The notes under the pieces were generated by a model that saw only the letters and a list, made by a program, of their open reading frames with translations, did not search any database and had not been told where the DNA came from. A program made the translations under genes and the position numbers. Below are positions 11,387 to 54,521 of a stretch of 64,000 bases of DNA, piece after piece. Origin of the DNA: an uncultured bacterium (lineage in GTDB: Bacteria; Desulfobacterota_D; UBA1144; Nemesobacterales; UBA2774); NCBI GenBank assembly GCA_963825135.1, contig CAWGRW010000009.1:2091301-2155300 (forward strand). The letters run 5' to 3'. Positions within the stretch are counted from its first letter, which is position 1. Every line of letters begins with the position of its first letter.

Positions 11387-12157
11387 TCAAACCCCTCTTT
11401 CCAGGAGTATCTTCGAGGGCTTCGGGACCTTCCTCAATTTTATACCGAACTTGTCGACGATGTTCTTATGAATATAGGCGACGGCTTCATCGACCGAATC
11501 GGTGAACACGAGGAAGCCGAGGTCGTTCTCGTCTATCGTTTGTTCCATGACCATCAAATCGAGAAAATCCATGAGGGGCTTGAAATAATCCCTACCCAGG
11601 AGGATTATCGGAAAGTTGTAGATCTTCTTTGTCTGGATCAGGGTCAGCGTTTCAAAGAGCTCGTCCATTGTCCCCGCGCCGCCCGGCAGCACGACGAACG
11701 CATACGAGTATTTAAGGAGCATGAGTTTCCTGACGAAGAAATACTTGAAAGTTACCATTATGTCGAGGTAGGGGTTCGGCTTTTGCTCCATCGGGAGCTT
11801 GATATTACAGCCTATCGATTTTCCGCCCGCTTCCTTCGCCCCCCTGTTGGCCGCTTCCATGATGCCGGGCCCGCCTCCGGTCATTACGGCGAAGCCCATG
11901 TTCGCGAGCTCGTACCCCATCTTCCGTGCGAGCTCGTACTTCGGGTTCCCTTCCTTCGTTCTCGCCGATCCGAAGACAGTGACGACCGGGCCTACGAAAT
12001 GGAGTATCCTGAACCCCCTTAAGAACTCCCGCATTACGCGGAATAAAAACCAGAGCTCCCTCAGCCTCGAGTGCGGCCCTTCGATGAACTGCATCTCCTC
12101 CGTGCGGGGTTTTACGCTCTTTTGCCTGTAAAAGAATTCCCTGAGGTCCTTTAACAT
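11387..12157 (-). CDS. LOG-family (TIGR00730) nucleotide phosphoribohydrolase
   Basis: Motifs GGGPGIMEA and PGGAGTMDELFE. Confidence 0.85.
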   Translation of the reverse strand: MLKDLREFFYRQKSVKPRTEEMQFIEGPHSRLRELWFLFRVMREFLRGFRILHFVGPVVTVFGSARTKEGNPKYELARKMGYELANMGFAVMTGGGPGIMEAANRGAKEAGGKSIGCNIKLPMEQKPNPYLDIMVTFKYFFVRKLMLLKYSYAFVVLPGGAGTMDELFETLTLIQTKKIYNFPIILLGRDYFKPLMDFLDLMVMEQTIDENDLGFLVFTDSVDEAVAYIHKNIVDKFGIKLRKVPKPSKILLERGV

Positions 12158-12298: not shown

Positions 12299-13462
12299 TC
12301 AGTAAACGGCTTTATCGGCCGGCTTGGCGGATCCGATAACGAAGCTGTTAATAATTGTCCGGGCGTATTCTTGACCCTGCGCCCTGTCGTACACGCCGCC
12401 CTCGGCCAATCTGTCTGAGTATTCGAACAGGTATTCGTATAGTTTTTTATCCTGATAGCTATTTTTCAATCTTAGAGTCGGGTTTGACTTAATCGCTTCT
12501 TCCCACACCTGTCTCACATCAGCCCAGAACGGCGCGGTCCGCTCCCAGTATTCTCTGGCGGCCGAGTCGTTAAAACCGGACAACCGTTCATACCGGTCGA
12601 GCCCGATCTCTTTTGCGAGGTAGGGGTCGTTCCCGAGCTCCTTACCGTCCCCGTCCACGACCATTTTGAGGTTGTCCTGTTCATGCGCCCAGCCGGTGGG
12701 AGTGATGGTTATGCGGTTCACGCCCGAGAGCACGTTATAATCGTCCCTCACGCTGAATTCCCGCCTCGGCAGCGGGCGCCATGTGACGGGGCTCGTCCAG
12801 GTCACATCGTTCCCGTCGTACACCCATTCCGCGAGCGCTTCGTATCTGGGCGTATCGTCTACCTGATAGACCGCCTGGGACCATTTCCCGGCGGCTTGGT
12901 CCCTGGGGACTTTGACCGTTTGCCAGGTGTTGTTGCCTCTGTACTCCAAAATCTCCTCGTCCTGATAAGTCCAGTCCTGACGCCAGTGTTTGGTTACTGA
13001 CGGGCCCTCCACTTTCCCGTTTTCGTCCAGGAAATACATTACGAGTATGTGCTGGAGACTTATGAAGCTGCCCGTGTCCTCGATCACCTTTATGTATTCA
13101 GTCGCCCAGGACTGATAGGGGCGGTCAACCTTGTATCCGGTACGGAGCGGTATTGTCTCGATGAAATTGAACGTGACCCTGTATGTTCCGGCCATCGACA
13201 GAATGGCTCTTCTGTCGCGCTCGTACTTCGTGATGCCGGGTTCCCGTACGGCGATCAATCCGGGGTTCGGGGATTTGTCCAGTATGACGGGCGCGCCCGC
13301 GGTCACGCCGCCCCTGGGCTTCATAGAGTCGTTATCCGAGTATTCCCAGCTGAAGGTGAATTGCTTCTCCGCCGGCGGGTTTTGTTGAACGGCAGTCTTC
13401 GCGGCGCAGCCGCTTACTGCGATCGGCAAACAAATGAGTAAGGGCAGCAGTTTTTTCGTCAT
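12299..13462 (-). CDS. Hypothetical lipoprotein
   Basis: Start trimmed to MTKKLLPLLICLPIAVSGC, which contains a lipobox. I recognise no family for the remainder. Confidence 0.55.
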   Translation of the reverse strand: MTKKLLPLLICLPIAVSGCAAKTAVQQNPPAEKQFTFSWEYSDNDSMKPRGGVTAGAPVILDKSPNPGLIAVREPGITKYERDRRAILSMAGTYRVTFNFIETIPLRTGYKVDRPYQSWATEYIKVIEDTGSFISLQHILVMYFLDENGKVEGPSVTKHWRQDWTYQDEEILEYRGNNTWQTVKVPRDQAAGKWSQAVYQVDDTPRYEALAEWVYDGNDVTWTSPVTWRPLPRREFSVRDDYNVLSGVNRITITPTGWAHEQDNLKMVVDGDGKELGNDPYLAKEIGLDRYERLSGFNDSAAREYWERTAPFWADVRQVWEEAIKSNPTLRLKNSYQDKKLYEYLFEYSDRLAEGGVYDRAQGQEYARTIINSFVIGSAKPADKAVY

Positions 13463-13686
13463 GACCCGGCTTGCTCGCAAGAAACGTTTAAAGATTACCC
13501 AAGCCGAAGAAAGATTCGAAATTAAGCCGGATTTTTGTAAATATCCCGGGAAGATAATTTTAATGATAAATATTAATAAAGTTCCTGATATTCGCCCGTA
13601 CCCGAGCTGAAAGTTCAATTGAGCTGTATATTTTGCCTATGGCAACGGTCGGAAACACGCCTCAAAACCGATTGAAGGAGGAAGTG

Positions 13687-14373: not shown

Positions 14374-14614
14374 CCTCGCTGGGGACCACAATAGGCAAAG
14401 CCCAATAACGATTTGTAAAATACGGGCGGGAGCCGGTCCACGCTCGCATTCTGCATCGGAGATTGCCTGCCGGGCCCGGGCTTGGCGACGCTATCGGGCT
14501 TCTATGTAAATATTACATTAAGGGGAGTGTATAACCTTAACAACTTTCCCGTAATGACTTATACTAACTTTTGGTCTCAGGTTATGATGATATGAGCCTT
14601 TACCCCGAATCGTA

Positions 14615-17287
14615 ATGAATAAAGTCGATAAAAAGAAACCCGGGAAAACAAATAAGTCCGTAATTGATTCCGGAAACCATCTGTTGGCGGTTCTCGATAC
14701 GGTGGGGGAAGGGATTGTGACGATCGATTCCGAGGGCACGGTTATCATGGTCAACAGAGAATTCGAAAATATCTGGGGTTATCAGCGCGACGAGATAATC
14801 GGAGTCAACCTGACGATTCTCATGCCGGAGAAATACAGGGGCGCTCACAAAGCCGGTATGAAGCGCTACCTCTCGACAAGAGAGGCTGTCGTTCTCGGCC
14901 GCAGGCTTGAGCTCGAGGGTCTCAGAAAAGACGGGTCCGTCTTCCCTCTCGAAATCCGCATAACCGAAACGGAGATAAACCGTGACGTCTATTTTACCGC
15001 GGCGGTTCGGGACCTTACCGATCTTAAAAAAGCGGCCAAGCTCCTGCACGACGAAGCGCAGCTAAGGAGGCAGAACGAAGTTCTTCTGGAGCTTGCAAAG
15101 AGCGAAGCGATCGAAGCGGGAGACCTCGACGCGATCCTGATAAAGATAACTGAAGCAGCGACTAGAACACTGGGAGTCGAGAGGGCTAATATATGGTTAT
15201 ACGATGAGGCGCGGACCCGGATCCATTGTATCGAGCAGTATGAGGCCGGGACCGGAAAGCACTCCGACGGAGCCGAGTTGTCAGCCTCCGACTACCCGAC
15301 GTACTTCAAGGCTCTGGAGAACGAAAGAATTATTGCCGCGCACGACGCCGCAACCGATCCAAGGACGTCGGAGTTCGACGAAACGTATCTCAAACCGTTG
15401 GGTATCACTTCCATGCTCGATGCCCCGGTAAGGCTTAAGGGGCGAATGATAGGACTGATATGCCATGAGCACATGGGGCCGCAGAGGACGTGGACCCTCG
15501 AAGAACAGAACTTCGCGGGATCTGTCGCAGACCTGCTTTCGCTCGCTCTGGAAGCGAGAGAGCGGAAAAGGGTGGAGAAATCCCTGAGAGAGAGCGAGGA
15601 AAAATTCCGCACATTAGTTGAAAATACATATGACTATATCTATGAAGCGAGCATCGACGGCAAATTCCTTTACCTGAGCTCCAAACACAAGGATGTCCTC
15701 GGTTATGATCCCCAGGAATTTATCGGCAGTGATATATTTGAGCTGATCTACCCGGAAGACCGTCCGGCGGTGATGGAGGTATTTCAAAAGATTATTAATA
15801 CCTCGACCTCGGGACACGCCGTATACAGGTACCGGCACAAGAACGGTGACTGGCTCTGGTTTGAAGCTACCGGCAGGCCATACGTAACTATGGGCGGTAA
15901 GACGCGGATACTCATCTTCAGCAGGGAAATCACGGAGAGGAAGAATGCCGAGGAAGCCCTCAAAGAGACGCTCGGCCAGCTCTCCAGGAAAAACAGATAT
16001 GAGACTATAATCAGCGCGGTTACCAGGAGCGTTCACCAATCGACGGACCTGGAAAACGTGCTTGAAAACGCCGTCCAGGCGATATTCGAGAACATAGAAA
16101 AGGCCGATAGCGTATCTATTTATTTTGTAGAAGGGGAGGAAGCCGTTCTAAAAGCGCACAGGGGTTATGTCGACTGGTATATAAAGAGGGTAGCCAGAAT
16201 CCCATATCCCCGCGGATACGCATGGAAGGTGATTATGGATGAAAATCCGAGGTATTGCCCGGATACGGAGATGGATACCGTGATAGGGCCCGCGGGAAGA
16301 GAGTTAGGAATAAAATGCTATTTGTCCCTTCCGATCCTTTATGCGGGTAAGACTATAGGTACGATAAATATTAACTCGTTCCAGAAGGGGGCGTTCGATG
16401 AGGAGGAGCTGAAACTCCTCGAGATAGTGGGTGATCAGATTTCGGTCGCGATAGGTAACGCCAGGCAGAAAGGGGCGCTCCAGGAAGCGATGTCCGAAGT
16501 TGAGCTGCTAAAAAAGCGGCTTAAGAATAATAAGCTCTTTTTGCCCGAGGAAGAAACGCGCGAGCTGCATTTCGAAGGGATCATAGGCAAATGCTCTCCG
16601 CTGCGCAAGGCGATGTTCATGGCGGAGCGGATCGCTCCCACGGATTCTGCAGTGCTGATCAAGGGCGAGCCGGGCACGGGCAAGCATTTATTCGCGGAGA
16701 CTATTCACAGGATGTCTGTGAGGGCCGAAAACCCTTTCGTGAAAATCAACCTTAAGGGCCATGAGGGAGGCCTTGCCGAGGTTCGGATGTTCGGGTTTGA
16801 AGAAAAGGGTGCCGACAGCACCGCTATTTCCCTTTCCGTAGGCAGCGTGGAGCTCGCAAATAACGGCACTGTATATATTAAAGATATCAGCGGGTTGTCC
16901 ATAAATATACAGAGAATACTATTGTCCATATTACAGGAAGGGGAGTTCGTTCGTCCCGGCAGCTCGCGTGCAATTAAAGTGAATGTCAGGGTCATTGCGG
17001 GGACGAACGGGGAACTGGAGAAGTCGGTGGAGGACGGACTATTTCTCGAAGACCTGTTTCATGAGCTCAGCGGGTCTCAGATTATACTACCGCCGTTGAA
17101 AGAGAGGTTGGAAGATATCCCACTTCTTGCCCAGCATTTCTTATTAAAGCACGGTAAAAAGCCCGGGAAGGAATTGAAATCCATATCACAGCATCTGCTG
17201 GACAATTTTGATTCTTATGATTGGACGGATAACGTCAGGCAGCTCGAAAGAATAATAAAAGACGCCGTTGCCGCATCCGGCACCTGA
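14615..17287 (+). CDS. PAS-GAF-PAS-GAF sensor protein with degenerate sigma-54-activator-type AAA+ domain and no DNA-binding domain
   Basis: Two PAS-like segments (VTIDSEGTVIMVNREFENIWGY...; YIYEASIDGKFLYLSSKHKDVLGY...) and two GAF-like segments. The AAA+ core has Walker A GEPGTGKH and ILPPLKERLEDIPLLAQHFL...NVRQLERII. The protein ends directly after sensor II. Confidence 0.8.
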   Translation: MNKVDKKKPGKTNKSVIDSGNHLLAVLDTVGEGIVTIDSEGTVIMVNREFENIWGYQRDEIIGVNLTILMPEKYRGAHKAGMKRYLSTREAVVLGRRLELEGLRKDGSVFPLEIRITETEINRDVYFTAAVRDLTDLKKAAKLLHDEAQLRRQNEVLLELAKSEAIEAGDLDAILIKITEAATRTLGVERANIWLYDEARTRIHCIEQYEAGTGKHSDGAELSASDYPTYFKALENERIIAAHDAATDPRTSEFDETYLKPLGITSMLDAPVRLKGRMIGLICHEHMGPQRTWTLEEQNFAGSVADLLSLALEARERKRVEKSLRESEEKFRTLVENTYDYIYEASIDGKFLYLSSKHKDVLGYDPQEFIGSDIFELIYPEDRPAVMEVFQKIINTSTSGHAVYRYRHKNGDWLWFEATGRPYVTMGGKTRILIFSREITERKNAEEALKETLGQLSRKNRYETIISAVTRSVHQSTDLENVLENAVQAIFENIEKADSVSIYFVEGEEAVLKAHRGYVDWYIKRVARIPYPRGYAWKVIMDENPRYCPDTEMDTVIGPAGRELGIKCYLSLPILYAGKTIGTININSFQKGAFDEEELKLLEIVGDQISVAIGNARQKGALQEAMSEVELLKKRLKNNKLFLPEEETRELHFEGIIGKCSPLRKAMFMAERIAPTDSAVLIKGEPGTGKHLFAETIHRMSVRAENPFVKINLKGHEGGLAEVRMFGFEEKGADSTAISLSVGSVELANNGTVYIKDISGLSINIQRILLSILQEGEFVRPGSSRAIKVNVRVIAGTNGELEKSVEDGLFLEDLFHELSGSQIILPPLKERLEDIPLLAQHFLLKHGKKPGKELKSISQHLLDNFDSYDWTDNVRQLERIIKDAVAASGT

Positions 17288-17305
17288 GGGCCGGGAATAG
17301 TTTAA

Positions 17306-20152
17306 ATGAAGAAAAATTATAGGAACCTGAATCAGGCGCTTCTTACAGCGCTCATGACTTATTCCGGGAGAATTTGTTACAAGTCCAAGCGGGAGGGAGA
17401 GTTCCGGGATATATCGTTCGGGGATTTTAAGAAGCTGGTCCTCCGGTTGTCGGCATATCTTCTCGGCAAGGGGTTTGAACCCGGGTCGAGAGTAATAATT
17501 TTTTCGGAAAATTCGCCGGAGTGGATGGCTGTCTGTATAGCGTCCCTGTTTTCAGGCGGGATTGTCATTCCCGTAGCCGCGAATTCCAAGCCCGAACTAT
17601 TGAACCGCATACTAAAAGATTCATCGGCGTCGCTAGTGTTCGTGCAAAACGTTTTTCAGGCGGCCGGTGTCGGGAATATGTGTGAGAACAAACCTTCTAT
17701 AATAGTTATGGAGGATATCGACGGAAGCGGGGATCGGACGATGCACCTCACTTCTATTGGTAAAGGCTCAATTACGGAGGAGGATGTCAAAGCGGTAAAG
17801 ATACGCGCCGAGAGCGTAAACCCGGAATCTACTGCCCTAATTTTCTACACCGCCAAAGAGACAGGGGTTCCGAGGGGCGTCGTGTTCTCACACGGCAGGA
17901 TGCTCGATACACTCACCCACGTTTCGGAATGGTTTGGTCTGGACGAATTCGACCTGGGGTTCACATCTACGAACTGGAGCAATTTCCAGAGTTTCGTGAT
18001 CGCCCTCGAATACATATATTCAGGCATTGGGAATGCGCTCTCCCAGAGCATAGATACCGTATTCGAGGACCTTCAGCAGACGAGTCCCACTGTCACCATG
18101 ACAAGCCCATTTGCCCTGGAGTATATTCACAGACGAATTATGCACGAGCTTGACGAGATGCCTGAGTCGAGGCGGAAAATTTTCCAGTGGGCGCTTGCAC
18201 TTGGAAGGCAATACCGCTCCGAGGAGTCCACGGCGTCAAAGGAGCTGCGTGAGCAGTATACCCGCGCAGATATGGCATTTTTCGGGAGGATGAGGGCGAT
18301 ACTGGGAGGGAGGCTCCTGCGGATTTATTGCGCGGGTGCTCATTTGTCGAGGGAGCTCGCCGGTTTCGCCGAGGCCATAGGACTGTTGCCCCTGAACGTT
18401 TATTCAATCGTTGAGGCTGGCGGCTTTCCTGCCTTGAGCCGCCCTTACGCCCGCAGGATGGGTTCCTGCGGTCAGGTCGCTCCGGGTTTCCAGATAAGAA
18501 TCTCGGACGAAGGCGAAGTCCTGGTGCGAGGAGAAACGGTTTCCGCCAGTTACTGGAACTCCCAGGAGCAATATGAGAATCTCTTTGACAGGGACGGGTG
18601 GTTCCGTACCGGAGATTTGGGGAAGTTCGACCAGGACGGGTATCTGTTCCTGACCGGTCATAAGGAGTCAATTTTCCTCCTGTCAAACGGCCATAAAATC
18701 GTACCGTCCAAAATTGAGAACTATATCGCGGACAACCCCTTCATAACGCAAGCCCTCGTATTCGGCGAAGGTAAATCCTATGTGTCTGCTTTGATCGTTC
18801 CGAATTTTCAGGTAATCGGGGAATATCTAACCGCTTATGAATCTTCACAACAAAACGGCGACATGCCTATCGATACGTTTAATCCGGCGGTTAAGGCGCT
18901 CATAGATAAAACGGTCTCGGATGTAAATAATCAGCTGAACGTGTGGGAAAAGATACAGGCGTATACGATGATCGATAAGCCATTCAGCGGGTATGGTTCG
19001 GATTCGGCGGAGCTCGAAAGGAGCGACCGGGCCGAAGTTCTAAAGAAATACTCGCTCTATATCAACGCTATGTATCCCGACACCCTCAAGATCGATAACG
19101 ACGATATAAAGCTCGTGCAGCTCGATCCCGACCAGCTTCGCGACCTTCTCGAAAAGCAGGACATTCTGACCGCATGGATGGAAGAAGCCGGCATCGGGTT
19201 TTTGCTGGATCTCGCGCGTTCCAAAGGCATTGACGCACTATCCATGGTGAACATTTGCGAGACCGCGACCAGCATCGCGCAGATGCAGAGCGAGGAAAAA
19301 CCTATATCCACCGCTCTTATCGTTGGCGATCCGACGCACATATCCAGCGTGCTGCCCGACGGGGAGATACAATTTCACCGTTTCGATCATATAAGGCGTA
19401 TGCAGCAGGTGGTTATCGCCCTGGCGAAAATAGTCGACGGTGTGGTGCTGGGTTACGGGATAGATAAATACGGGTATCTGAGGCGTGTCCATAAGCTGGA
19501 AATAGATGCGGATGGTCCGTCTAACTTTCTCCTGGGTCCGCAGTTCAGGAAGCATGCCGCGATATCGAGCAAGTGCGATGCGATTGTATTCTATGTGCCG
19601 GTAGGCGGCAGGCAGGTGCGGGTATTTTCGGACGGGCAGATGGTCGCGAGGTATTCGAACGGGAACTGGATGGCCGAGAACTTTCCGCACATCGACGAGA
19701 CCGTCGAAAGGCTTGCTCTCAAAAAGAGCTATGACGTCGAACTCCTGAGGCGAATTTTTCGTTGTGCTTTCCTGATGTCGGAGAGGAACCTGGGAGCTAT
19801 TTTCGTTGTCGGTGAGTCTGATAAAATATTGAAGAAGTCGGACCCTCCTGAAATAAGCCCTTACGCGACGATAACCAATGCTTATATAGGCAAATTGACG
19901 GACAGCGAGATAATAAATTTTGCGAAACAGGACGGGGCGACTATAATAGATTCGGCCGAAGGCGCGTTTCGGGGCTGTATGGTACTTCTACGTCCCAGCG
20001 CCGATACCCAGGCGGAGATAGGGATAGGCAAGGGCTCGAGACACTCGAGCGCGTCAAAAATGAGCGCAGAGGCGGGGTGTCTTGCAATCACTGTATCCCA
20101 GGACGGTCCGATCACCGTGTACGACAGCGGGGAGCGTATTATGACCATATAG
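17306..20152 (+). CDS. ANL-superfamily (acyl-CoA synthetase-like) adenylating domain fused to two tandem DisA_N/diadenylate-cyclase-like domains
   Basis: N-terminal ~590 aa are COG1022-like (GWFRTGDLGKFDQDGYLFLTGHKES...IVPSKIE). The C-terminus has two DAC-pattern segments, ending ...GSRHSSASKMSAEAGCLAITVSQDGPITVYDSGE. Starts 18 nt after the sensor gene. Confidence 0.7.
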   Translation: MKKNYRNLNQALLTALMTYSGRICYKSKREGEFRDISFGDFKKLVLRLSAYLLGKGFEPGSRVIIFSENSPEWMAVCIASLFSGGIVIPVAANSKPELLNRILKDSSASLVFVQNVFQAAGVGNMCENKPSIIVMEDIDGSGDRTMHLTSIGKGSITEEDVKAVKIRAESVNPESTALIFYTAKETGVPRGVVFSHGRMLDTLTHVSEWFGLDEFDLGFTSTNWSNFQSFVIALEYIYSGIGNALSQSIDTVFEDLQQTSPTVTMTSPFALEYIHRRIMHELDEMPESRRKIFQWALALGRQYRSEESTASKELREQYTRADMAFFGRMRAILGGRLLRIYCAGAHLSRELAGFAEAIGLLPLNVYSIVEAGGFPALSRPYARRMGSCGQVAPGFQIRISDEGEVLVRGETVSASYWNSQEQYENLFDRDGWFRTGDLGKFDQDGYLFLTGHKESIFLLSNGHKIVPSKIENYIADNPFITQALVFGEGKSYVSALIVPNFQVIGEYLTAYESSQQNGDMPIDTFNPAVKALIDKTVSDVNNQLNVWEKIQAYTMIDKPFSGYGSDSAELERSDRAEVLKKYSLYINAMYPDTLKIDNDDIKLVQLDPDQLRDLLEKQDILTAWMEEAGIGFLLDLARSKGIDALSMVNICETATSIAQMQSEEKPISTALIVGDPTHISSVLPDGEIQFHRFDHIRRMQQVVIALAKIVDGVVLGYGIDKYGYLRRVHKLEIDADGPSNFLLGPQFRKHAAISSKCDAIVFYVPVGGRQVRVFSDGQMVARYSNGNWMAENFPHIDETVERLALKKSYDVELLRRIFRCAFLMSERNLGAIFVVGESDKILKKSDPPEISPYATITNAYIGKLTDSEIINFAKQDGATIIDSAEGAFRGCMVLLRPSADTQAEIGIGKGSRHSSASKMSAEAGCLAITVSQDGPITVYDSGERIMTI

Positions 20153-20233
20153 ATTGGACCGGCTCACTCTGATTTCTTTGAGTGAGACGGTATCCGGCGG
20201 CCAAGCAAAAAAGAGCCTGAAATATTATTAAAG

Positions 20234-20262
20234 TTGACGGCAGGATTTAAATAAGTTAAAAT
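20234..20262 (+). promoter_or_regulatory. Sigma-70-type promoter of cspA
   Basis: TTGACG (20234-20239), 17-nt spacer, TAAAAT (20257-20262). This leaves a leader of about 95 nt before ATG 20365. Confidence 0.55.
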
Positions 20263-20364: not shown

Positions 20365-20574
20365 ATGGCAGAACGTAAAATTGGCACTGTAAAGTGGTTC
20401 AATTCTACAAAAGGTTTCGGTTTCATTGAGGTAGAGAACGGCGAAGACGTTTTCGTACATTACAGTGAAATTAAAGCGACCGGCTTCCGCACGTTGGAAG
20501 AAGGTCAGCGCGTAGAGTTCACCGTTGTAAAGGGACAGAAAGGTCCCCAGGCTCAGAATGTAGTACTGGCTTAA
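20365..20574 (+). CDS. cspA: Cold-shock protein (CspA family)
   Basis: [15 protein letters not shown] (RNP1) and DVFVHYS (RNP2). AGGAGG RBS. Confidence 0.95.
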
Positions 20575-20586
20575 CGGAAAAAATTG

Positions 20587-20622
20587 GTGAGCCGGATACC
20601 CCGGCTCACTTCTTTCCTTTTA
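20587..20622. terminator. Bidirectional Rho-independent terminator between cspA and the convergent gene
   Basis: 9-bp stem gtgagccgg/ccggctcac with a 5-nt loop. Followed by ttctttcctttt on the plus strand and preceded by aaaaaa, which gives a T-run on the minus strand. Confidence 0.7.
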
Positions 20623-20633
20623 TTAACCCCTGT

Positions 20634-21470
20634 CTACTCAAAAGCTCTTATGCTTCCGATCTTAAACTTCTGGTTTCCGGTGATCTGATTAAATTCCACC
20701 CGGCTGTTTACGTTCGGGATCTCGGGTTTGAAGGCGAAGTTCGTTATAGGCTTTCCGAAAATCAAGTCTTTTATCAGGGCGATGAACTGCGGTGACTCGG
20801 CCATGTTCTTATAGGTAATCACAAGCTTCCTCGGGACCGGGCGTTTGCCGTCTTCGATCCAGATCTGCCAGTCAATATCCTTCTCGACGAATACCAGATG
20901 GTGGCAATTCGTGCCCATGACCTTGCTTAGACCAAAATAGGCCCCGGAAATAACATCAGCTGTCATTGCCTTGTACGTATCTATAAAAAGAAACTCGCTC
21001 AGAGCGGGGGTAAACTGATATTCCTCTTTCAGCTTATTCAGTGCCTGGTCTACAGAAGGGGGAAGCGTCGCGAGTGAGAAATCGTTAAGCGGCACTTCAA
21101 GGAGCGTCGCCTGTCCTGCGTCATACCAGAGTTTGTATCCCCCGAGGTCGGTTATATATCCCACGTAAAATTTATCCGGTTTCTTGAGGTATACGGTTTC
21201 TTCCGCGTTGTATTGAATCTTCTGTTTGGATTCCAGCACATCGTCGAACATCATTTCCGCTTTAAATGTATATTCATATTGACTGCCCATATAGTAGCTC
21301 ATGGCCTGAAGGACGGCTGCAGCCTTAGGGTCTATATTCGGATTCGCATCCTGGGCGTTGGCGCTAACCTGCAGGAACAACGAGCCGTAGCCCGCAAATA
21401 ATACGGCAATGAATATATAGAGTGAGATTGAACTCAGCTTCTTTGGTAAACAGTGTGCAGCTCTAATCAT
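20634..21470 (-). CDS. Periplasmic DUF2092-like (LolA-fold) protein
   Basis: Signal peptide, then AAAVLQAMSYYMGSQYEYTFKAEMMFDDVL..., which resembles DUF2092 from memory. GGAGGGGG RBS before ATG 21470. Confidence 0.4.
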   Translation of the reverse strand: MIRAAHCLPKKLSSISLYIFIAVLFAGYGSLFLQVSANAQDANPNIDPKAAAVLQAMSYYMGSQYEYTFKAEMMFDDVLESKQKIQYNAEETVYLKKPDKFYVGYITDLGGYKLWYDAGQATLLEVPLNDFSLATLPPSVDQALNKLKEEYQFTPALSEFLFIDTYKAMTADVISGAYFGLSKVMGTNCHHLVFVEKDIDWQIWIEDGKRPVPRKLVITYKNMAESPQFIALIKDLIFGKPITNFAFKPEIPNVNSRVEFNQITGNQKFKIGSIRAFE

Positions 21471-21812
21471 AATACCCCCTCCTTTTTCCTTGTGGTAAGC
21501 CCGCATTTTATTTTTGTAAAGCTTCCCAGCAGTTTATACAGTATCATAATTCTTTCACGGTTTTCAACCTTCGGCCATAGAGTCCGGACAGGATACCGGC
21601 TATCCCCTCGTTACGACCTTCGTCTGCGGGGACTATTAGAACTCTTCCGGCACCATGCCTGATCTGAATCTATTCTATTGACTGTATTGACATAAAATTG
21701 AAAGAGACCAATAATTAGGCAAACGTTTAATCAATCCCGGGTGTAAGCCTTGAGCGGGACGGAGGGCGGGAGATTTCTTTCAATAATTCAAATGGGTAAG
21801 GAGATGAGAGAT

Positions 21813-54444: not shown

Positions 54445-54521
54445 CGGGGTGTAGCGCAGTCTGGTAGCGCGCGGCGCTTGGGACGCCGAGGTCGGAGGTT
54501 CAACCCCTCTCACCCCGACCA
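54445..54521 (+). tRNA. tRNA-Pro (anticodon UGG), CCA encoded
   Basis: Hand-folded cloverleaf. Acceptor CGGGGTG/CACCCCG, D stem GCGC/GCGC, anticodon stem CGGCG/CGCCG with loop CTTGGGA. T stem GGAGG/CCTCT with loop TTCAACC, discriminator A, CCA. Confidence 0.9.

Follow-up and report, generated by a model that had tools for sequence, protein, structure and literature searches.

Does a two-gene bacterial locus in which every nucleotide-handling domain departs from its textbook motifs represent a decaying operon, a complex of pseudoenzymes, or a signaling system with a working enzyme? This question is raised by positions 14615..20152 of a 64,000-nucleotide stretch of DNA from an uncultured bacterium of the lineage UBA2774 (GenBank assembly GCA_963825135.1, contig CAWGRW010000009.1, positions 2,091,301 to 2,155,300; hereafter, the window). 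This locus encodes a multi-domain sensor protein with an AAA+ domain and, directly downstream, a fusion protein (ANL-DAC) composed of an ANL (acyl-CoA-synthetase-like) domain and two diadenylate cyclase (DAC)-like copies. An earlier interpretation made from the letters of the window alone (the sequence-only reading) had quoted non-canonical motif strings for the AAA+, ANL, and DAC-like domains, all of which were present where it had placed them, and had proposed simultaneous degeneration in a pseudoenzyme complex or, alternatively, divergent chemistry. Work on signaling by cyclic di-AMP (c-di-AMP) has centered on Firmicutes and Actinobacteria, and five classical cyclase classes are recognized. 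Here, the domains and motif states of the window and related loci were determined, together with their conservation, synteny, and gene fusions. The results suggest that the pair is a variant of a bacterial second-messenger signaling system, not a decayed operon, and that its C-terminal DAC is probably catalytic. Coordinates of the two genes and their domains refer to the forward (+) strand.

Tandem DAC module of the fusion protein

The fusion gene (17306..20152), delineated by open reading frame (ORF) calling, Pfam, and homolog searches, encodes 948 amino acid residues with the Pfam domains AMP-binding, AMP-binding_C_3, and DAC. Downstream of the ANL domain, a conserved linker (residues 600–660; 19103..19285), helical in the AlphaFold2 model and with a mean identity of 69%, leads into an N-terminal DAC-like copy (N-DAC; residues ~661–800; 19286..19705), recognized by hhalign, AlphaFold2, and Foldseek, and a C-terminal DAC (C-DAC; residues ~810–948; 19733..20149), assigned by Pfam, Foldseek, and profile alignment and containing NLGAIF, QDGATII, GSRHSSA, and VSQDGP. 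In the AlphaFold2 model of residues 604–948 (pLDDT 85, pTM 0.81), one order of helices and strands occurs twice, and the best 50 Foldseek matches in the PDB were all DisA or CdaA. These two proteins were also the top Foldseek matches of C-DAC (probability 1.00, E down to 8e-9), for which Pfam DAC gave an E value of 2.2e-13 and 50.3 bits (cut-off, 27). N-DAC and C-DAC aligned end-to-end with each other in hhalign (E 3e-5 over 143 columns), and the AlphaFold2 model of N-DAC alone (pLDDT 86.9) had DisA, CdaA, CdaM, and DacM as its best 50 Foldseek matches in the PDB. N-DAC matched no Pfam family at E < 0.01; Pfam DAC matched this copy weakly in 5 of 23 members (best E 0.011), and there was one DACNV match (E 0.083). 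A single-sequence phmmer search of PDB sequences with the C-terminal 355 residues gave no matches. For the region before the DAC, a DacZ_N domain (pyruvate-kinase-C-like) or some other named N-terminal domain of DACs was considered and rejected, because the 50 listed Foldseek matches of the isolated N-DAC were all DACs and Pfam gave no more than the weak matches above.

The motifs of the two copies were compared among 69 full-length members. In C-DAC, the motifs [LQ]GAI, DGA, G[AS]RHSSA, and VS[QH]DGP were identical in 68 members, the sole exception being L051, which has a garbled C-terminus; DGA (D876-G877-A878) was present in all 69. Relative to the classical motif GxRHRxA, R912 and H913 are kept, the second Arg is S914 in 68 of 69 members, and Ala or Ser takes the place of the Thr. 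Relative to GALI and (V/I)SEE, LGAI is present, Ser931 is kept, the first Glu is Gln, and Asp933 occupies the position of the second Glu. In the alignment of the family profile with CdaA, the DGA and RH motifs of the two coincided, and the invariant Asp933 fell opposite the second Glu of VSEE. N-DAC of the window carries STALIVGD, VDGVVLG, and QFRKHAAIS, with VPVGGRQ replacing VSEE. Thus, the DGA position reads DGV, the QFR-K-H string is shifted by one residue, and VPVGGRQ has neither Ser nor an acid. Family-wide, the N-copy motifs are STAL[IV], DGx, QFRxHAA, and VPxGG[RK]Q, in which Asp-Gly and Arg/His are kept and the Ser-acid metal motif is absent. The strings RKH and RHS, which the sequence-only reading had noted in place of RHR, correspond to QFRKHAA (residues 746–752) and GSRHSSA (residues 910–916), respectively, and both copies fold as DACs in AlphaFold2.

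C-DAC, N-DAC, and the helical linker are among the best-conserved parts of the ANL-DAC protein. Among the 69 members, the mean pairwise identity was 43% in the ANL part and 64–69% in residues 600–948, and columns conserved to at least 95% accounted for 6–8% and 26–30% of these regions, respectively. According to a review, the ATP/metal site of CdaA comprises Leu of GALI, Asp of DGA, Thr-Arg-His of GxRHRxA, and Ser and Glu of VSEE, and the second Arg of RHR is not among the residues listed (PMC7288161). PanS is an active DAC with DGF and GGR motifs, and its product is cUA (bioRxiv 10.64898/2026.08.10.743927). Because the CdaA site list omits the second Arg and PanS is active with DGF and GGR, we regard RHS as a signature of the family and not as a sign of a dead enzyme. 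This signature appears compatible with catalysis, and C-DAC is probably catalytic. By the criteria applied to C-DAC, N-DAC looks non-catalytic. The earlier view of degeneration in all three domain types therefore does not extend to C-DAC, which is strongly conserved and, with Asp as the acid of VSEE, keeps the ATP/metal residues listed for CdaA except the Thr.

Degenerate AAA+ domain and sensory domains of the sensor protein

The upstream gene (14615..17287; ORF call and Pfam) encodes a sensor protein of 890 residues, with the Pfam order PAS-GAF-PAS-GAF-Sigma54_activat-AAA_lid_14 and without a DNA-binding domain; HTH_8 was not matched. The AAA+ domain of the sigma-54-activator type (residues 656–823) and its lid (residues 829–887), together 16580..17275, were assigned by Pfam and by alignment to bacterial enhancer-binding proteins (bEBPs), and motif states were read by alignment to canonical bEBPs found in the same set of loci. 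The PF00158 match of the sensor was full-length and scored 141.6 bits, compared with 246–249 bits for canonical bEBPs in related loci. Walker A is kept as GEPGTGKH (residues 684–691; 16664-16687). The stretch at the GAFTGA loop (residues 726–739; 16790-16831) lacks GAFTGA and reads FGFEEKGADSTAIS, containing EEKGADSTAIS with a one-residue insertion. In the Walker B remnant (within 16865-16891), the canonical LFLDEI is replaced by VYIKDI, with Lys at the Asp position and Asp at the Glu position. The motif FRxDLYYRL is replaced by FLEDLFHEL (residues 810–818; 17042-17068), in which neither arginine remains, including the arginine finger. The polypeptide terminates right after the lid, and the C-terminal HTH_8 helix-turn-helix (HTH) domain is absent according to Pfam. 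The loss of the arginine finger and of the Walker B acids, as described in the sequence-only reading, was thus borne out for the arginines and for the Asp, which is Lys; the Glu position is still acidic (Asp), so that the acids are not wholly gone. The losses of the GAFTGA loop and of the HTH domain had been overlooked there, as had the FixL-type heme PAS and the mobility of the tandem DAC described below.

All of the orthologous sensors linked to ANL-DAC genes likewise lack GAFTGA, the arginine finger, and HTH. Their Walker B states are DE (L078), EE (L007 and L064), and KD, KN, or RN (the group of the window), with DE retained only in L078. This range constitutes a preserved series of decay of ATPase features. 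From these alignments, the AAA+ domain is judged to be a genuine, conserved pseudo-bEBP and is predicted to be unable to activate sigma-54. The possibility that the sensor activates the downstream gene through sigma-54 was rejected, since the protein lacks GAFTGA, the arginine finger, and HTH, and no -24/-12 match was found near the module. When the AAA+ region alone was used as the query, only generic bEBPs at ≤46% identity were retrieved and the orthologs were missed; that search is uninformative on ortholog distribution.

The N-terminal part of the sensor consists of PAS1 (residues 20–135; 14672..15019) and, as assigned by Pfam, the sensory domains GAF1 (170–312), PAS2 (336–443), and GAF2 (477–613) (15122..16453). 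PAS1 aligned without gaps over 116 residues with the heme domain of RmFixL (1d06; E 6.5e-23), followed by BjFixL and DosP as the next-best matches in the structural database, and matched the FixL model of NCBIfam (E 4.8e-29). In the alignment, ILMPEKYRGAH of PAS1 (residues 68–78; 14816-14848) pairs with ILMPEPYRHEH of FixL and contains the proximal His, which is retained in the orthologs of L001-L005. PAS1 is predicted to be a FixL-type heme PAS, and a heme ligand such as O2 is likely. For residues 466–883, the best NCBIfam match was NifA.

ANL domain of the fusion protein

The ANL N- and C-subdomains (residues 21–417 and 456–591; 17366..19078) were assigned by Pfam, with matches to PF00501 (E 2.5e-39) and PF23562 (E 1.1e-10). 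The FadD11 model of NCBIfam covered residues 30–592 with an E value of 2e-52 and a score far below its curated cut-off. Alignment of the motifs confirmed the two non-canonical strings reported earlier. The A3 motif, the P-loop, reads YTAKETGVPRG (residues 181–191; 17846-17878) and departs from the consensus [ST][ST]G[ST][ST]GxPKG. The A5 motif reads YSIVEAGG (residues 366–373; 18401-18424), in which the Glu of YGxTE is kept and the Thr is Val. In addition, A7 keeps TGD (18608-18622), A8 reads LTGHK with His for Arg and the Lys kept, and A10 has Arg in place of the catalytic Lys (AELERSDR; within 19007-19030).

Across the family, the P-loop is the most variable ANL motif: the Lys position of PKG is occupied by K, R, L, V, M, E, or Q, and some P-loops have three-residue deletions or Asp for Gly. 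The A10 Lys is found in only part of the family. The Glu of A5, the Asp of A7, and the Lys of A8 are retained throughout. Some Chloroflexota members are near-canonical, with TSETGxPKG, TEAGG, GRK, and GELTxSxKxxR. The P-loop appears to be under relaxed constraint family-wide, and the ANL domain is clearly degenerate in the clade of the window, as judged by its motifs. We infer that the domain is an ancestral ligase fold that now probably serves mainly as a ligand-binding regulatory module.

Conserved pairing of the sensor and ANL-DAC genes

The two genes are co-directional and separated by a spacer of 18 nt (17288..17305), in which a consensus scan found no terminator-like site. The length of this gap follows from the ANL-DAC start at 17306, which is backed by homolog alignment through a conserved NLNQALL motif near the N-terminus and is favored over the start at 17354; the database copy of the protein (P0001, 932 residues) begins at the latter, an internal Met 16 codons later. 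Sensor orthologs lie directly 5′ of, and co-directional to, ANL-DAC genes in nine further loci (L001-L005, L007, L064, L078, and L080), with gaps of approximately 20–60 nt. The ANL-DAC proteins of these loci are 63–80% (L001-L005), 65% (L080), 57% (L078), and 52% (L007 and L064) identical to that of the window, and the remaining neighbors in L007, L064, and L078 are unlike those of the window. With the window included, intact full-length ORFs with shared motif states are found in ten loci at 52–80% identity. Because the motif states recur in orthologs, chance can be excluded as their origin. The co-transcription suggested in the sequence-only reading thus agrees with the confirmed ORFs, the spacer, and the pairing in nine other loci, and the sensor and ANL-DAC genes probably form a conserved, co-transcribed signaling pair. 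The two checks proposed with that reading, for conserved adjacency in relatives and for mere decay of this copy, gave a syntenic pair in the nine other loci and orthologs that share the non-canonical motifs, respectively.

In two loci, the sensory region and the cyclase are joined in a single protein. L065:381-2744 and L066:3354-5717 encode 788-residue proteins in which PAS-GAF-PAS is fused directly to a tandem DAC without an ANL domain, and their N-terminal half is homologous to residues 11–448 of the sensor, including GAF1-PAS2 (434–441 bits). By the Rosetta-stone argument, this fusion of a sensor homolog to a tandem DAC suggests that input from the sensory region goes to the cyclase. A canonical GAFx3-AAA+-HTH bEBP gene lies divergently beside the fusion gene of L065.

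Distribution and mobility of the tandem DAC

A search of a protein collection yielded more than 110 clusters (clustering at 90% identity) of ANL-DAC homologs with 940–990 residues and the same three Pfam domains, and a scan of one genome per species yielded 77 ANL-DAC loci. These belong to four or more phyla, with members in Thermodesulfobacteriota, Candidatus Dadabacteria, Chloroflexota (Anaerolineae and Caldilineaceae), and Acidobacteriota; the closest relatives, at 80–90% identity, were from metagenome-assembled genomes (MAGs) of Thermodesulfobacteriota and Dadabacteria, which points to a genome of the Dadabacteria/Thermodesulfobacteriota type as the origin of the window. Several genomes have two or three paralogs. 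Two are encoded back to back in L011 and L021 (Chloroflexota MAGs), and HK-STAS-CHLO-3, CALMIS, and CAZWZZ are among the genomes with three copies on different contigs.

An exhaustive search with a tandem-DAC profile gave 222 representative clusters at E<=1e-10, 70 of them at E<=1e-30, and both copies were matched as one C-terminal stretch in proteins of several length classes. The Pfam domains preceding this stretch included ANL, PAS-GAF-PAS (in P0244, the counterpart of L065 and L066), and zf-HC2 with a Lon_C-like region, and in some proteins none was recognizable. The zf-HC2 proteins P0249, P0254, P0263, and P0287 (620–800 residues) carry this anti-sigma-type domain and the Lon_C-like region before the two-copy DAC, and in P0250, P0270, and P0272 (350–390 residues) the two-copy DAC follows approximately 30–70 residues without a recognizable Pfam domain. 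The tandem DAC is interpreted as a mobile output module that provides an enzymatic output behind interchangeable sensory inputs. The C-copies of the zf-HC2 and short proteins have RHY, RHI, RHM, RHF, RHT, RHE, and similar strings for RHR, and SxDG is mostly kept.

In L070:7989-8507 (Ca. Dadabacteria RIFCSPHIGHO2_12_FULL_53_21), only the last ~170 residues of ANL-DAC are left, at 90% identity. The locus is syntenic, with DUF6607 upstream and cspA and DUF2092 downstream; the sensor, the ANL part, and N-DAC are deleted. If translated from its first in-frame Met, the fragment would encode ~160 residues comprising only a DAC; it may be a remnant of the gene or, alternatively, a naturally minimal DAC.

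Other neighbors of ANL-DAC genes and flanks of the locus

No neighbor of the ANL-DAC gene was found to be universally conserved across phyla. In Chloroflexota and Acidobacteriota, the immediate co-directional neighbors are other signaling genes. They encode a membrane Ser/Thr kinase (10 loci), a DHH-type phosphoesterase (6 loci), a kinase-STAND-LuxR protein (4 loci), a cyclase-STAND-TPR protein (5 loci), and, in Acidobacteriota, an SLC12-type transporter (4 loci). The phosphoesterase gene, whose product has NrnA and Rv2837c as best PDB matches, adjoins ANL-DAC in five of its loci (L014, L028, L031, L057, and L068) and, in L037, lies approximately 300 nt 3′ of it. The phosphoesterase scores just under the Pfam DHH cut-off and has GGGK for GGGH; it is a candidate enzyme for degrading the cyclase product. 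The AA_permease/SLC12-type gene lies directly 3′ of ANL-DAC in L052 and L059 (4 nt in L059) and further away in L069 and L073. c-di-AMP is linked to ion or osmolyte transport, and this neighbor is suggestive of such a link. In one unclassified MAG (L039:6519-7970), a canonical REC-AAA+-HTH bEBP with GSFTGA ends 30 nt 5′ of ANL-DAC, and the same response regulator is located approximately 4.5 kb upstream in L018 and L077.

In the window, a sigma-70-like promoter match (TTAACA-17-TATACT; 14537..14565, +), based only on consensus at 10/12 positions, precedes the sensor gene, and no sigma-54 (-24/-12) promoter was matched near the module. Between the ANL-DAC stop codon and the cspA-type cold-shock gene (20365..20574, +; Pfam CSD, E 7.6e-30), no clear terminator was seen, and only a 7-bp hairpin without a T-run was present (~20163-20186). 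As noted in the sequence-only reading, cspA lies just downstream and has a promoter-like match of its own (TTGACG-17-TAAAAT; 20234..20262, +); the consensus scan also found a terminator-like hairpin 3′ of the gene (20586-20610). A cspA-type gene is located approximately 200 nt 3′ of ANL-DAC in L001-L006, L070, and L080, a close clade, with 90–99% identity, and its membership in the module is uncertain. The module is further flanked by genes on the - strand for a LOG/SLOG-type protein (Lysine_decarbox, LDcluster4; 11387-12157), a DUF6607 protein (12299-13618), and a DUF2092 periplasmic protein (20634-21506). All three are syntenic in L080, and synteny of the DUF6607 and DUF2092 genes was also observed in other close relatives of the window. 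SLOG is a family of nucleotide-processing proteins. The sole Rfam match in the window was a tRNA gene (54445-54518, +); no c-di-AMP riboswitch or other RNA element was found by Rfam. A defense system of the CBASS or Panoptoo type was considered and rejected: PADLOC gave only generic AAA+ (RtcR) matches for the sensor, and no matches for the ANL-DAC protein or its neighbors.

Proposed mechanism and alternative explanations

We favor a sensor-controlled cyclase in which the AAA+ domain, N-DAC, and probably the ANL domain are regulatory pseudoenzymes and C-DAC is probably catalytic, and consider that this reading as a whole has about an even chance of being correct. In it, the activity, the product, the signal, the direction of control, and the non-catalytic role of ANL are inferred from the comparisons above. 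The cytoplasmic multi-sensor PAS/GAF domains would receive the signal, with a heme ligand such as O2 at PAS1. The pseudo-AAA+ domain, which retains only Walker A, would serve as a nucleotide-binding or oligomerization scaffold, contact the ANL/tandem-DAC protein, and pass the PAS/GAF signal to it. The ANL domain would be a second, ligand-binding regulatory module of the cyclase protein, and N-DAC would be regulatory, either as an autoinhibitory pseudo-partner or as an allosteric nucleotide site. C-DAC would condense ATP to c-di-AMP or a close relative once two C-copies meet face to face. One variant of this scheme is rather improbable in our view: within one chain, pseudo-DAC and DAC would form an asymmetric site with a single metal center, and the product would be a dinucleotide that is linear or mixed (for example, pppApA or an A-N hybrid) instead of symmetric c-di-AMP, its synthesis being gated by a heme-based sensor of O2, NO, or CO via the dead AAA+ ring. 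If true, this would open a new route to a second messenger, and the enzyme would be the first DAC under gas control.

Several observations weigh against the sensor-controlled cyclase. Ser replaces the second Arg of RHR family-wide, Ala or Ser replaces the Thr, and VSQD replaces VSEE; any single one of these substitutions could abolish or alter catalysis. Family-profile sequence matches to solved DACs were weak (best E 0.16), although the Pfam and Foldseek matches were clear. The near-canonical ANL domains of Chloroflexota may still have enzyme activity. Furthermore, the pairing with a sensor is limited to one clade and is missing in L009 and approximately 60 loci of Chloroflexota and Acidobacteriota.

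A first alternative, the main proposal of the sequence-only reading, is that the AAA+ domain, ANL, and both DACs only bind nucleotides or ligands and that the pair senses a nucleotide pool with no enzymatic output of its own. It accounts for textbook motifs being broken in all four domains, for N-DAC clearly lacking the metal site, and for the second Arg of RHR being missing in every member. However, C-DAC retains the acidic, Arg, His, and Ser residues of the CdaA site, with only the Thr changed (Ala/Ser), and PanS is active with still less of the RHR motif. Besides, a complex without an output domain (HTH, kinase, or effector) is hard to tie to a cellular response, and genes for DHH-type phosphoesterases lie beside ANL-DAC in six loci. 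We regard this alternative as unlikely; what stands of the pseudoenzyme complex proposed earlier is the AAA+ domain as a pseudo-bEBP, N-DAC without a metal site, and the relaxed P-loop of ANL, but not C-DAC. Control might also run in the reverse direction, from a dinucleotide produced by ANL-DAC to the sensor, whose degenerate AAA+ domain would be the receptor. The AAA+ domain of FleQ binds cyclic di-GMP (c-di-GMP), and the sensor has Walker A but not the hydrolysis machinery. AAA+ ATPase domains are also among the c-di-GMP effectors listed in a review (PMC7288161). On the other hand, the sensor has no output domain after AAA+, PAS-GAF-PAS is N-terminal to DAC in L065 and L066, which is the usual order from input to output, and the partner AAA+ in L078 retains DE in Walker B; we find such wiring quite unlikely.

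The ANL domain could instead be the enzyme of the system, an active acyl-adenylate or acyl-CoA ligase to which the DACs are regulatory nucleotide-binding appendages, with the sensor tuning lipid or acid activation. The best NCBIfam match of residues 30–592 is a FadD11-type ligase, the A5, A7, and A8 residues (Glu, Asp, and Lys, respectively) are conserved, and A3 and A10 are near-canonical in many Chloroflexota members. Against this, ANL is the least conserved region and has P-loop deletions and losses of the PKG Lys, the tandem DAC is also found without ANL, and acyl-carrier or lipid genes are not among the conserved neighbors, so that we hold this explanation to be improbable. It is most improbable that the genes are unrelated neighbors or in decay, with their adjacency and unusual motifs due to drift in a single genome. 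Such drift would agree with the absence of the sensor neighbor in most family members and with the deletion of L070 to a ~170-residue remnant, but the ten loci have intact ORFs, shared motif states, short gaps, and 52–80% identity, and the C-terminal motifs are near-invariant across phyla.

The sensor-controlled cyclase and the all-pseudoenzyme alternative would have different consequences. If C-DAC is active, RHR is unreliable for calling DACs, and the heme PAS would tie oxygen or redox state to c-di-AMP. If it is inactive, pseudoenzymes alone would make up the module, a nucleotide sensor of unusual elaborateness. The tandem DAC defined by the analysis is a widespread output module with a near-invariant signature of its own (RHSS and SxDG); its N-terminal partners in Chloroflexota, Acidobacteriota, Dadabacteria, and Thermodesulfobacteriota are ANL, PAS-GAF, or anti-sigma-like regions. 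The sensor appears to be a clean natural case in which the AAA+ domain of a sigma-54 activator has been turned into a non-catalytic partner of a cyclase, and intermediate states are preserved in relatives.

Comparison with known systems

No description of the tandem DAC, the ANL-DAC fusion, or the pairing of a pseudo-bEBP with a DAC was found in the searchable literature, exclusive of the DAC census of Galperin 2023, which reportedly sorts DACs into 22 families. On the sensor side, the closest counterparts are the bEBPs NtrC, NifA, and PspF (PF00158), in which N-terminal PAS/GAF domains likewise precede a sigma-54-type AAA+ domain and its lid. FlgR and CtcC are bEBPs without a DNA-binding domain, and TyrR lacks GAFTGA. 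The sensor of the window differs from the bEBPs in lacking GAFTGA, the arginine finger, the Walker B acids, and HTH all at once, and its partner is a cyclase gene, not a sigma-54 promoter. FixL and the c-di-GMP proteins DosP/DosC resemble the sensor in the gap-free heme PAS alignment, the proximal His, and the position upstream of a nucleotide-signaling output, whereas the output of the pair would be a DAC on a separate polypeptide, reached via the pseudo-AAA+ domain. To our knowledge, no O2-regulated DAC has been described. In tandem cyclases such as C1/C2, one copy lacks the catalytic metal ligands and is nevertheless conserved. The resemblance of the tandem DAC to such pseudo-heterodimeric cyclases (mammalian adenylyl cyclase C1/C2, as well as the I-site logic of GGDEF) is only an analogy, with fold and chemistry unrelated.

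The fusion protein shares with CdaA, DisA, CdaS, CdaM, and DacZ (DAC/DisA_N, PF02457) a C-terminal DAC fold with GALI-like, DGA, RH, and Ser-x-acid motifs, the location of the DAC C-terminal to regulatory domains, and the presumed need for two DAC domains face to face. It differs from them in RHSS for RHR, in VSQD for VSEE, in a second copy without a metal site in the same chain, and in the N-terminal ANL fold. PanS and the DS-2C defense proteins are likewise divergent DACs with partial DGA/RHR motifs and are active, and their asymmetric active site produces the non-canonical 3′3′-cUA (bioRxiv 10.64898/2026.08.10.743927). In contrast to these proteins of defense islands, which are minimal (~150 residues) or have the architecture DACNG-DACNH-DAC, the ANL-DAC module has no defense context according to PADLOC, and any asymmetry of its tandem DAC would come from the fused pseudo-DAC.

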